Origin: Burkholderiales bacterium
Lineage (GTDB): Bacteria; Pseudomonadota; Gammaproteobacteria; Burkholderiales; Usitatibacteraceae
Direction of reading: 5' to 3'
NCBI GenBank assembly: GCA_031375445.1
Contig: JANMHV010000458.1
Location: 1 to 60,282, forward strand
DNA length: 60,282 nucleotides
Of the stretch, positions 8,811-37,929 are shown in pieces. Under the pieces are notes generated by a model, which saw nothing but the letters and a program-made list of their open reading frames with translations, made no database searches and was not told where the DNA came from. Numbering within the stretch: position 1 is the stretch's first letter; each line of letters begins with the position of its first letter. The position numbers were made by a program, and so were the translations under genes.

Positions 8811-8968
8811 AACACGAAGGACACGAAGGTACACAAAGGTCCACAAAGGAAAACGGAACCGGTCGAGAGTACTGCTGCCACCATCGCGAACTCCCGGCAG
8901 TCTCACGAACCTCAAGCCGTCATTGCTTTCCTTTGTGGACCTTTGTGTACCTTCGTGTCCTTCGTGTT
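8811..8968. repeat. Long palindromic element A (42-bp perfect inverted arms, 74-nt spacer)
   Basis: 8811-8852 AACACGAAGGACACGAAGGTACACAAAGGTCCACAAAGGAAA is the exact reverse complement of 8927-8968. Confidence 0.95.
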
Positions 8969-8994
8969 TAACCCCACAGCCCGTACCCACGCGC

Positions 8995-9681
8995 TCAGTC
9001 CTCATGCGTGATCGCCCCGGCGGAAATGTGGATCCGCCGGTCGCAACGCTTCGCCAGGTCCACATCGTGCGTCACCAGCACCAGCGTCGTCCCGCTCTCT
9101 CGGTTCATCTTGAACAGCAACTCGATGATGTGCTCTCCGGTGACCGAATCGAGGTTGCCCGTGGGCTCGTCGGCGAAGAGCAGCCGCGGCTCGGTCACGA
9201 AAGCCCGCGCCACCGCCACGCGCTGCTGCTCGCCCCCGGAGAGCTGGCGCGGGTAGTGGCCGAGGCGCTCGCCCAGGCCCACGCGCTCGAGCACCGCGCG
9301 GGCACGGCCCGACGCGTCGCCCCCGCCGTTCAATTCCAGGGGCAGCATCACGTTCTCCAGCGCGGTGAGCGCCGGCAAAAGCTGGAACGACTGGAACACG
9401 AAGCCCACCATCTGCCCGCGCAGGCGCGCCCGGCCATCCTCGTTCAGCGCGAACAGGTCCTCGCCCGCGATCGCCACCGTACCCGAAGACGGAACGTCGA
9501 GCCCGGCCAGCAATCCCAGCAGGGTGGACTTGCCCGAACCGGAGGCGCCAAGGATCGCCACCGACTCGCCGGCGCGCACCTCGAAGGCCGCGTCCCGTAC
9601 GATCGTCAGCACGTGGTCCGGAGTCTCGACTTGTTTGGTGAGGCCCTGAGCCTTCACAATCACCTGTTCCACCGCGCCCAT
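8995..9681 (-). CDS. ybbA: ABC transporter ATP-binding protein, YbbA-like
   Basis: GASGSGKST, LSGGEQQRVA, FADEPTGNLD; divergent from tesA as in the conserved tesA-ybbA-ybbP locus. Confidence 0.9.
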   Translation of the reverse strand: MGAVEQVIVKAQGLTKQVETPDHVLTIVRDAAFEVRAGESVAILGASGSGKSTLLGLLAGLDVPSSGTVAIAGEDLFALNEDGRARLRGQMVGFVFQSFQLLPALTALENVMLPLELNGGGDASGRARAVLERVGLGERLGHYPRQLSGGEQQRVAVARAFVTEPRLLFADEPTGNLDSVTGEHIIELLFKMNRESGTTLVLVTHDVDLAKRCDRRIHISAGAITHED

Positions 9682-9693
9682 CCCGCTCCCTTC

Positions 9694-10317
9694 GTGATCC
9701 GCAGAACCTTCCTCGCACTGATCCTGGCACTGGGCGCCGCCCATGCCCAGGCCGCGCCGCGCACGCTGCTCGTCTTCGGCGACAGCCTGTCCGCCGCCTA
9801 CGGCCTGCAGGCCAGCCAGGGGTGGGTCCACCTGCTCGGCGAGCGCATCGCGCGCTCGAAGCTTGCCTGGCACGTGGTGAACGGCAGCATCTCCGGCGAG
9901 ACCACCGCCGGGGGGCTACGCCGCCTGCCGGGCGACCTGAAGCGGCACAAGCCCGCCGTGGTGGTGATCGCACTTGGCGCCAACGACGCGCTGCGCGGGC
10001 AACCGATCGCGGCGATCCGCTCCAACCTGGAGCAGATGATCCGGCTGGCCCGCGCAGCGCGCGCGGAGCCGGTGCTCGTGGGCCTCATGATTCCTCCGAA
10101 TTATGGCATCGATTACGCGCGCGAGTTTCACGAGGCCTACGTGGAATTGGCGAAGGCCAACCGCGTGGCGCTGGTGCCGTTCCTCCTCGACGGCATCGGC
10201 GACAAGCCGGAGCTGTTCCAGGCCGACCAGCTGCACCCGGTGGCGAGCACCCAGCCGCGGGTGCTGGACAACGTATGGACCGTGCTGGAGCCCGTCCTGC
10301 GCAAGGCGCCGAAGTGA
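9694..10317 (+). CDS. tesA: Arylesterase/acyl-CoA thioesterase I (GDSL/SGNH family)
   Basis: GDSLSAAYG, SISGETT, LGANDALRG, QADQLHP; signal peptide after GTG 9694. Confidence 0.9.
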   Translation: MIRRTFLALILALGAAHAQAAPRTLLVFGDSLSAAYGLQASQGWVHLLGERIARSKLAWHVVNGSISGETTAGGLRRLPGDLKRHKPAVVVIALGANDALRGQPIAAIRSNLEQMIRLARAARAEPVLVGLMIPPNYGIDYAREFHEAYVELAKANRVALVPFLLDGIGDKPELFQADQLHPVASTQPRVLDNVWTVLEPVLRKAPK

Positions 10318-11402
10318 CCGAGCTGCCGCTGCACCGCGACCGCGCCGAGGCCTGGGTGGAGACGCCGTCCTCCCTGCAGGAGCTCCAGGCCTTCGACGCC
10401 ATCATCGATGCCCGCAGCCCCGCGGAGTTCGCCGAGGACCACCTGCCCGGAGCGATCAACGCGTCGGTGCTGGATGACGCGGAGCGCACCCTCATCGGTA
10501 CCGTGTACAAGCAGGAATCGGCCTTCGACGCGAAGCGGCTCGGCGCCCCGATCGCGGCCCGCAACGTGGCGCGCCACATCGAGGAGCTGTTCGCGGACCA
10601 GCCGCGCAACTGGCGGCCCCTGATCTACTGCTGGCGCGGAGGCGGCCGCTCCGGCGCCATGGCGCACATCCTGCGGCAGGTAGGCTGGAACGCCCATCGC
10701 CTCCGCGGCGGCTACAAGGCGTTCCGGCAGCAAGTGGTGAAGGACCTGGAGACGCTGCCCGAGCGGGTGCGCTTCCACGTGGTGTGCGGCGCTACCGGCA
10801 CCGGGAAGAGCCGCCTGCTGGAGTCGCTGGCCGGTGTGGGCGCCCAGGTCCTCGACCTCGAGGTGCTCGCCGCCCATCGGGGCTCGGTCCTGGGCGATCT
10901 TCCCGACGCGCCGCAGCCGAGCCAGAAATCCTTCGAGACCGGGATCTGGACCGCGCTCTCGGGTTTCGACCGCGCGCGCCCGGTGTACGTGGAGTCGGAG
11001 AGCCGCAAGGTGGGCAACCTGCGCGTTCCCGAAGCGCTCATCGCCTACATGCGCGCCGCGCGCTGCTTCCGCATCGAGGCCGATGCCGCCACGCGCGTGC
11101 GGCTGCTGATCGAGGATTACGAGCACTTCGTGAAGGACCCGGCAGCGCTCGCCGCCAAGCTGGACCATTTGAAAGACCTGCACGGCAAGGAGCGCATCGT
11201 CGCCTGGAAGGAGCACATGGCCGCGGGACGCTGGGAGGCGCTGGTGGCCGACTTGCTCGACAACCATTACGACCCGGCCTACCGGCGCTCGCTCTACCGC
11301 AATTACCGCGACGCGCAGGGCGCGGCGATCCTGCCCGTGGCCTCGGGCACCCGGGAGGAGTTCGGGGACCTCGCGCGCGCGCTGCTGCGCGAGCATGGAT
11401 AG
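10314..11402 (+). CDS. mnmH: tRNA 2-selenouridine synthase
   Basis: Rhodanese domain (DARSPAEF..DHLPGAIN, YCWRGGGRS) plus P-loop GATGTGKS, LA.HRGS, ESESRKVG; GTGA overlap with tesA. Confidence 0.92.
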   Translation: MTELPLHRDRAEAWVETPSSLQELQAFDAIIDARSPAEFAEDHLPGAINASVLDDAERTLIGTVYKQESAFDAKRLGAPIAARNVARHIEELFADQPRNWRPLIYCWRGGGRSGAMAHILRQVGWNAHRLRGGYKAFRQQVVKDLETLPERVRFHVVCGATGTGKSRLLESLAGVGAQVLDLEVLAAHRGSVLGDLPDAPQPSQKSFETGIWTALSGFDRARPVYVESESRKVGNLRVPEALIAYMRAARCFRIEADAATRVRLLIEDYEHFVKDPAALAAKLDHLKDLHGKERIVAWKEHMAAGRWEALVADLLDNHYDPAYRRSLYRNYRDAQGAAILPVASGTREEFGDLARALLREHG

Positions 11403-11449
11403 GGACGATCGGTTAAACTCCGGAAAACAAAAGAGAATCGCGCAACGAC

Positions 11450-36573: not shown

Positions 36574-36584
36574 GGAGCGACAGG

Positions 36585-36612
36585 TAGAATGGCCCGAGGG
36601 ACTGCGATTATA
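36585..36612. promoter_or_regulatory. Face-to-face -10 elements for the divergent nadE and GNAT genes
   Basis: TAGAAT on + (36585-36590) and TATAAT on - (36607-36612) in a 53-nt intergenic gap. Confidence 0.55.
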
Positions 36613-36626
36613 GGGTCCCCCACCCC

Positions 36627-37754
36627 GTGCCCCGGACACTTCGAATCCTCGAGTCGCTGGATGCCGTGGACCCGAGCCGATGGGATGCGCTGGCTGGAGG
36701 CAACCCGACGCTCGCCCATGCCTTCCTCGACAGCCTCCATGCCAGTGGCTGCGCCGCGAGCGCGAGCGGCTGGGCGCCGCGCTATCTCACCTCGTGGGAG
36801 GGCAAGCGCCTGGAAGGCGCGGTGCCCCTCTATGCCAAGGCCCACTCCTACGGCGAGTACGTGTTCGACTGGGCGTGGGCCGACGCCCACGAGCGCCACG
36901 GGCTCGAGTACTACCCCAAGCTCCTCGCCGCCGTCCCCTTTACCCCGGCCACGGGCGCCCGCCTCCTCGCCGACAATCCCACGGTGCGCGTCGAGCTCGC
37001 CTCCGCCCTGCTCGAGATGGCGCGCGACTCCGGCGCCTCCTCGCTGCACGTGCTCTTCCCCCGCGAGGAGGATGCGGCGGTGCTGCGCTCGCTCGGAATG
37101 CTGGAGCGCTCGGGCGTGCAGTTCCACTGGCGCAATCCCGGCTATGCGGGCTTCGATGATTTCCTCGCCGCGTTCTCCCACGACAAGAGGAAGAAGGTGC
37201 GGCAGGAGAGGAAGCGCGTCGCCGCGGCGGGCGTCACCGTGCGCCGCGTGACGGGCCACGAGGCCACCACCGCCGATTGGGATTTCTTCACCTCGTGCTA
37301 CCGGCGCACCTACCGCGAGCACCGCTCGACGCCCTACCTCACGCGCGGCTTCTTCGCGATGCTGGCCGCGCGCATGCCCGGCAACGTGCTGCTGGTGATC
37401 GCCGAGCGCGAGGGCAAACCCATCGCCGCGGCGCTCGACCTCTTCGGCCCCCATGCGCTCTACGGGCGCTACTGGGGCTCCACCGAGTACGTGCCGGGGC
37501 TGCACTTCGAGGCTTGCTACTACCAGGCGATCGAGTTCTGCATCGAGCGGAAGATCCCGCTCTTCGAGGGCGGCGCCCAGGGGGAGCACAAGCATGCCCG
37601 CGGGTTCATGCCCGAGGCCACGAAGTCCTTCCACTGGCTGGCGCACCCGGCTTTCGAGCGGGCGATCGACGACTACCTGGAGCGGGAGGGGGCGCAGATT
37701 TCCGCCTACGTTGATGAACTCAACGACCGCTCACCATTCAAGGTCAAGGCGTAA
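36627..37754 (+). CDS. FemAB-like GNAT protein (DUF482)
   Basis: HSYGEYVFDWAWA, VPFTPATG, LYGRYWG, FEGGAQGEHK. Confidence 0.9.
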   Translation: MPRTLRILESLDAVDPSRWDALAGGNPTLAHAFLDSLHASGCAASASGWAPRYLTSWEGKRLEGAVPLYAKAHSYGEYVFDWAWADAHERHGLEYYPKLLAAVPFTPATGARLLADNPTVRVELASALLEMARDSGASSLHVLFPREEDAAVLRSLGMLERSGVQFHWRNPGYAGFDDFLAAFSHDKRKKVRQERKRVAAAGVTVRRVTGHEATTADWDFFTSCYRRTYREHRSTPYLTRGFFAMLAARMPGNVLLVIAEREGKPIAAALDLFGPHALYGRYWGSTEYVPGLHFEACYYQAIEFCIERKIPLFEGGAQGEHKHARGFMPEATKSFHWLAHPAFERAIDDYLEREGAQISAYVDELNDRSPFKVKA

Positions 37755-37756
37755 CG

Positions 37757-37929
37757 GCACCACTAAGGTCACGAAGGTCCACAAAGTTCCACGAAGGAAA
37801 GCAAAAGAAGGTTTCAACGCAACGTGAAGCAGCGACTCGATGAATGGCGTCGTCGCTCGTTTCCACGTTGAATCCTGTCTTGAGGTTTCCTTCGTGGAAC
37901 TTTGTGGACCTTCGTGTCCTTCGTGGTGC
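37757..37929. repeat. Long palindromic element C (44-bp arms, 2 mismatches)
   Basis: Arms 37757-37800 and 37886-37929; same family as A and B; between convergent genes. Confidence 0.93.

Follow-up and report, generated by a model that had tools for sequence, protein, structure and literature searches.

What kind of element is a long hairpin that recurs, in several sequence variants, between the genes of one bacterial genome, and what keeps its two arms alike? The question is raised by a stretch of 60,282 nucleotides (the window) from a Burkholderiales bacterium of the Usitatibacteraceae (GenBank assembly GCA_031375445.1, contig JANMHV010000458.1), in which an initial annotation, made from the letters alone, had picked out three such hairpins, copies A, B and C. 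The genome of the window is hereafter called G000 and other genomes of the genus G001, G002 and so on, whereas C and L numbers denote contigs and loci, respectively. The hairpins belong, without a gene of their own, to a repeat family with arms that elsewhere surround a gene of the GxxExxY family, and the reading proposed here, to which we give a probability of roughly 0.58, is that the encoded nuclease cuts folded cognate hairpins and that, through host repair, a copy is written into the site, frequently on top of an older hairpin. The action of the enzyme is what we infer from sequence and from a predicted model.

Family members were found with a profile built from six arms of the window and searched genome-wide. 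Of 34 inverted pairs in the genome, one (C56) represents a sister family, leaving 33 paired copies, 32 of them short (142-227 bp) and one of 511 bp. The initial annotation had proposed counting copies across the genome and looking for an enclosed reading frame, and had pointed to GxxExxY genes as candidate partners; the 511-bp copy (G000:C211:640-1150) bears this link out, as the same arms enclose there an intact GxxExxY gene (139 aa, 14 kDa). All five GxxExxY genes of G000 lie within inverted arms of their own, and every arm type is also dispersed, with about 15 short pairs for the C238 type, 12 for C413, four for C399 and about ten arms for C173. Among 64 loci examined in the genus, inverted arms surround 50 of the 53 full-length genes whose flanks could be read, as against 2 of 300 positions taken at random. 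The strict G000 arm pattern, with 60 hits in G000, gave two single hits in 45 other genus genomes, and a strict full-arm pattern had no hit in the genome collection. A looser motif pattern collected 80 loci across phyla, namely 45 short hairpins, two pairs around a whole gene, two around a 3′ fragment (L199 and L200, which keep the 3′ third of a GxxExxY gene between the arms), three long forms without gene and 28 loci where no partner arm was seen. The gene occurs on 8 of 72,556 plasmids and on none of 50,697 phages, and none of the 15 motif loci on viral contigs has a GxxExxY gene within 600 nt. Among 31 genus proteins and one order-level GxxExxY protein, two strongly supported clades go, by eye, with two arm classes (GFLEKVYE proteins with ...GAT units, GLLESxYE proteins with CAC-purine units); since kin share labels, this pairing is no test of co-evolution.

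A different mover could be sought in a Y1 (RAYT/TIRYT) transposase, with the GxxExxY gene as passive cargo, given that G000 has three Y1_Tnp genes (C313:16620, C169:5899 and C474:23163). These, however, are flanked by GGGGWSAS-type repeats of TIRtron-like appearance, no listed element of the present hairpin families lies within 1.5 kb of them, and the sole gene found between the arms studied here is GxxExxY, all of which makes such a mover most improbable.

The C211 protein matches TIGR04256 and PF13366 (GxxExxY / PDDEXK_3) with 145 and 142 bits, against cut-offs of 35 and 22, and no other family. Residues E43, D83, E93, K95 and Q107 do not vary among 108 aligned homologs drawn from 120 listed, and the predicted model (pLDDT 88) has a PD-(D/E)xK fold, for which Foldseek returned Cas4 SSO0001 (E 5.9e-4). 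VIA Z values were 8.1 for BpuSI (root-mean-square deviation 2.5, 89 aligned), 7.8 for Cas4 (4.3, 100) and 7.0 for Hjc (3.2, 85); because they are middling and tied, the fold gives no substrate. A sequence search of solved structures returned weak Tn5 hits only (E 0.09-0.7). The predicted reading frame opens just outside the 5′ arm (G000:C211:1157) and runs through it (HHEGHEG..., pLDDT below 50), so that the two arms could pair over the gene start in the mRNA. As for the family at large, one search scored 7,999 candidates, of which 7,997 passed. The accessible text of PMC3424549 lists it as of unknown function, with many horizontal transfers, and 10.1101/2021.01.26.428298 mentions it just in passing; no paper tying it to repeats was found in the literature searched, from which subscription journals were mostly absent and supplements excluded.

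That hairpins are replaced in place is seen in G006, the closest relative of G000 (85-91% DNA identity). Its loci were found by its own arm pattern (30 of 39 matches fetched), and 9 of the 11 hairpin loci sit where G000 has a family copy, the other two being cases of broken synteny. Most differences between the arms of G006 and those of G000 are A/G changes, and arms of the G000 type are all but lacking in G006 (two weak hits versus one in the control). Orthologous spacers of the two genomes score 12-22 (n = 8), the same as random pairs, as against 28-128 (median 82) for 11 ordinary intergenic regions, and at the common sites the outer flanks beyond the arms stay recognisable. Within G000, spacers form lineages common to up to seven unrelated loci, which indicates that the short forms are copied as such; the copies on C89 and C264 have 41 identical nt in common. 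Taken with these lineages, the differing arms and spacers at common sites show that copying from locus to locus, and replacement where a hairpin already stood, involve arms and spacer alike. G020 is more distant, and 3 of its 14 element loci fall on sites of G000 copies. Each hairpin could instead be the inert scar of an inserted gene-bearing unit whose gene was later deleted, as deletion forms do exist (L199 and L200, and a gene-end remnant seen by eye at the lysS site of G002). Yet the G000 spacers match the GxxExxY gene at neither the protein nor the DNA level, which rules out gene remnants as their source, and they match nothing in their own genome outside the elements; with spacer lineages common to so many loci and spacers replaced at orthologous sites, scars are a quite improbable origin.

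The presence of hairpins also goes with that of the gene. Site A, where copy A lies, could be read in 42 of the 46 genomes of the genus, in two cases by a single flank, and an intact hairpin occurs in 12, that is, in 12 of the 24 genomes with a full-length GxxExxY gene and in 0 of the 18 without (Fisher P 3e-4, a value computed over kin that are not independent and many incomplete assemblies). The carriers are not one clade (p-AU, from the approximately unbiased test, 1.9e-4; 7 of the 21 genomes in the tree). Species differ in their hairpin type, and one-armed remnants are seen by eye in G061, G051 and G056. At site B, G006 has a hairpin and G002 a decayed one, whereas the site is empty in G010, G020 and G021. 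At site C, read in 22 of 24 relatives, six hold GxxExxY-type hairpins and several others unrelated palindromes (by eye), some of which resemble TIRtron-like GGGGWSAS repeats. As to the gene, six copies at or beside the site of what we take, from its translation, to be lysS reject one clade (p-AU 1.75e-5); G006 was placed there by its upstream neighbour, and G001 and G019 by lysS only. This site is empty in G021, G017 and G008. Of these data, the unpublished genome G001 accounts for one gene of the six, for two of the 64 loci and for an empty site A.

Many of these data would also suit the same partnership of enzyme and arms acting by excision or loss, followed by fresh independent insertion into a few tolerant gaps: orthologous sites are often empty, other species have TIRtron-like and further palindromes at site C, and the gene itself moves. 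Tolerance might likewise be read from the setting of the copies, since all those classified are intergenic and the 29 pairs flanked left and right by a called gene (counting C56 and C211; gene calls from this analysis) comprise 14 convergent, 15 co-directional and 0 divergent cases, as compared to 521, 2,883 and 551 of 3,955 gene pairs overall. However, independent insertion would have to account for 9 of 11 G006 loci on occupied sites though only about 70 of some 3,950 gene gaps in G000 hold any hairpin of these kinds, as well as for recognisable outer flanks and the failure to find target duplications, and we consider it unlikely, though the foremost of the alternatives. In any case, the enzyme would be the driver under excision and overwriting alike.

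The arms themselves offer a hint about how overwriting may proceed. They had been described as tracking their partner rather than the family, and the within-copy excess is real (partner identity 0.908 versus 0.868 between copies; 32 copies, with 0 of 20,000 permutations reaching it), but no more than 7 of 32 copies have the partner arm as best match, alone or tied. Matching peaks at the dinucleotide that leads unit 3, identical on both arms in 28 of 32 copies despite five types (agreement 0.922 between partners versus 0.393; positions matched in 30 and 27 of 31 versus 10.3 and 14.3 expected), and a smaller excess persists without it (0.889 versus 0.862). At the variable purines of units 1 and 4, partner matching falls to chance (15 versus 15.1 and 13 versus 13.8), a pattern that lends no support to the general templated copying of whole arms suggested earlier. 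Since the lead types AT and TC are each found in both spacer lineages, descent alone is insufficient to explain the covariation. Two rare lead types of G006 likewise stand on both arms (by eye). At site B of the same genome, L349 (G006:C384) combines G006-type purines with the AG lead and 10-10 spacing of copy B, and is a possible intermediate. We take the lead dinucleotide as a position read by pairing in the DNA stem, perhaps a cut or crossover point, the ordinary alternative being template switching, which, in the text available of PMC5941160, perfects inverted repeats in proteobacteria.

Together with recombination, template switching would also provide the homogeneity of arms if the hairpins were RNA structures selected by the host, such as terminators or mRNA stabilisers, and the GxxExxY protein merely an arm-binding regulator. 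Their enrichment at gene 3′ ends (divergent 0 of 29 versus 551 of 3,955) and very stable folds are what such structures would display. Against them, mismatches on the transcribed strand show none of the G-U bias looked for as a sign of RNA-level selection (42 G-U versus 44 A-C), as expected of a DNA-level process, and the purines of units 1 and 4 ought not to escape template switching. Moreover, catalytic residues are invariant, type switches follow the gene and site A is empty in most relatives, and host-selected RNA appears improbable as the explanation. A search of sequencing runs listed 16 holders, none of them RNA.

The preferred cycle of cutting and overwriting would start with a GxxExxY protein acting in trans on its own arm type, recognising the 10-bp-spaced CAC-purine-GG units in a folded stem, a cruciform or a single strand. 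The cut would fall at or beside the lead dinucleotide of unit 3, read by pairing rather than by sequence, and host repair would then use another copy to fill the site, even where an older hairpin is still in place. Gain of a new gene-plus-arms unit would convert the hairpins of a genome to the new type, and in genomes without the gene they would decay to one-armed remnants. Several observations weigh against this cycle. Flanking direct repeats of at least 4 nt occur in 3 of 32 copies versus 1.9 after shuffling, and pairs of filled and empty sites are too diverged to fix the element ends, so that no ends are definable. Half of the genomes with a full gene (12 of 24) have no intact site-A hairpin, and only 5 of 12 site-A hairpins find their best match in arms around the gene of their own genome (eight have it among the top three), that gene ranking 8, 16 and 22 of 30 for G010, G052 and G057, whose assemblies are fragmented. 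The dinucleotide rule is broken in 4 of 32 copies, and arms of the sister C238 family show no comparable partner matching. Since the same sites take unrelated palindromes, site reuse is partly a property of the site. Finally, a lone 14-kDa nuclease of this fold has no evident joining activity.

Some features lie around or beside the family. A polarised motif, GGCT(GGCG/GCGG/GACG/TGCG), stands up to 75 nt outside 27 of 142 arms versus 1.2% of random windows, mostly at a fixed distance, in three families and never reversed, and also within spacers of the C413 family; examples 36-45 nt outside arm starts are C8:3884, C156:2198, C181:2894 and C26:548, besides the G006 locus L263, and the motif may mark a longer form of the element. 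The copies at G000:C447:6775 and C177:436 have an identical left flank outside one arm, which overlaps a predicted gene start at C177, as if flanking DNA had travelled along in the copy event. A minor family with G006-like arms (G000:C369:13522, C345:8945, C449:9392 and C339:172), with no cognate gene in the assembly, possibly consists of leftovers of an earlier type.

Table 1. Hairpins of the window, with their parts and surroundings.
Feature	Position	Strand	Arms	Spacer	Setting
Copy A, gene-less hairpin	8811..8968		8811-8852 and 8927-8968	74 nt	gap between two co-directional genes, for an ABC ATPase (YbbA-like) and a permease (YbbP-like), filled by the hairpin
Lead dinucleotide before unit 3, copy A (TA)	8830..8831	+			partner in the right arm
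Copy B, gene-less hairpin	12749..12909		12749-12791 and 12867-12909	75 nt	convergent Ser/Thr kinase and GGDEF genes on either side
Copy C, gene-less hairpin	37757..37929		37757-37800 and 37886-37929	85 nt	convergent FemAB-like and PolB-exonuclease-like genes on either side
Copy D, gene-less sister-family hairpin	46703..46877				between a lapA-domain gene and ihfB

Within the window, the positions originally given for copies A, B and C are exact, and so are their spacer lengths, the four units per arm at 9-10-10 spacing and the GGAAA ends. The paired variants GGTACAC (A), GGAGCAC (B) and AAAGTTCCAC (C) are present on both arms as claimed; taken then as specific to each copy, they mostly mark subfamilies (the lead dinucleotide is AT in eight copies, TA in four, AG in two and GA in one). 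The spacers of A, B and C are indeed mutually unrelated, but at least five other copies have a spacer related to that of C, and one has a relative of that of A. Their supposed self-complementarity is weak (z-scores of -1.4 for A, -1.1 for B and -2.0 for C), the innermost spacer parts having a mean z of -0.32, with values below -2 in 2 of 26. Whole hairpins fold with z-scores of -13.5 (A), -10.9 (B) and -14.9 (C), none of 200 shuffles being equally stable, and Rfam gave no match in the window at gathering score. The classic form of repetitive extragenic palindromes (REPs) is absent, as had been noted, for the arms are made of direct units and a tag-like 4-mer lies near only 12 of 68 arm starts. 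Copy D, new in this analysis, has arms that match those around the GxxExxY gene on G000:C413. Elsewhere in the window, positions 39682-39951 hold a coding repeat of 18-nt period (KKAAADE-like) inside the minus-strand gene 39679-40518, and positions 20404-20440 a palindrome of the CCCTCTCCC type, which has about 165 loose matches in G000 and may be linked to DUF559 nucleases. The type, found also at L074 (G004, site C), occupies a site where G020 carries a GxxExxY-type hairpin.

If the proposed reading is true, a very large family of unknown function would acquire a role, and REPIN-like repeat populations would have arisen twice, with unrelated chemistry. The open REPIN question of how repeats at fixed sites get overwritten would become testable, as the 14-kDa protein is at hand together with a candidate cut position and two arm types that close relatives carry naturally, and a small nuclease with naturally varied sequence preferences could serve as a tool. 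More tentatively, and with some doubt on our part, the system might represent a replicator of a new class, present in bacteria and archaea, whose minimal PD-(D/E)xK nuclease would cut a folded hairpin at a dinucleotide read by pairing. Host repair would then overwrite tens of chromosomal sites with the arm-and-spacer cassette of the moment, so that a nuclease would drive rewriting across the genome with no transposase involved.

Among known systems, insertion sequences (IS) and their miniature inverted-repeat derivatives (MITEs) offer a full unit with terminal inverted repeats, internally deleted derivatives and gene-less copies, all of which have counterparts here. In contrast, the present family has no DDE fold or known transposase, no target duplication that we could find and one gene copy per family, and is nearly absent from plasmids and phages. 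The fold predicted for the C211 protein is shared with Cas4, Hjc and restriction-enzyme domains, none of which, to our knowledge, lives inside a dispersed repeat of its own.

The suggestion of a REPIN/MITE-like system is supported by the dispersed family and by the same arms around a GxxExxY gene. The nuclease likely spreads and rewrites its hairpins as REP-associated transposases are thought to do, with an unrelated enzyme. As with REPINs and their REP-associated tyrosine transposases (RAYTs), there are extragenic inverted doublets that form a hairpin around a variable, less conserved spacer, one cognate gene per family flanked by the same repeat, several systems per genome and rarity on plasmids (here 8 of 72,556). 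In the portions available of the respective papers, REPINs are described with compensatory changes (PMC3116915), with 'orthoswitches' (PMC3686654) and with mixed types at conserved sites that 'may be overwritten' (REPORTH, 10.1101/2024.10.14.618302), and RAYTs as immobile (PMC5581495; 10.1101/2021.07.10.451892). On the other hand, a 139-aa PD-(D/E)xK-fold protein takes here the place of the HUH/Y1 tyrosine transposase, direct units spaced by 10 bp that of short palindromes with a GTAG/CGTC tag, and tens of copies that of hundreds, whereas the gene sits within one of the hairpins and is found at different loci in different species, unlike the fixed, vertically inherited RAYT. TIRtrons, as far as the accessible part of PMC3733652 goes, likewise keep one gene between long inverted repeats that are also dispersed as dimers, but their TIRYTs retain the HUH motif and the catalytic tyrosine, often with GGGGWSAS repeats. 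The C211 protein is no HUH tyrosine transposase, and TIRtron-like genes occur separately in G000. The system described here thus behaves like REPIN-RAYT and is a member of neither REPIN-RAYT nor the TIRtrons, because its enzyme is not an HUH transposase, its arms lack the REP form and its gene changes locus.

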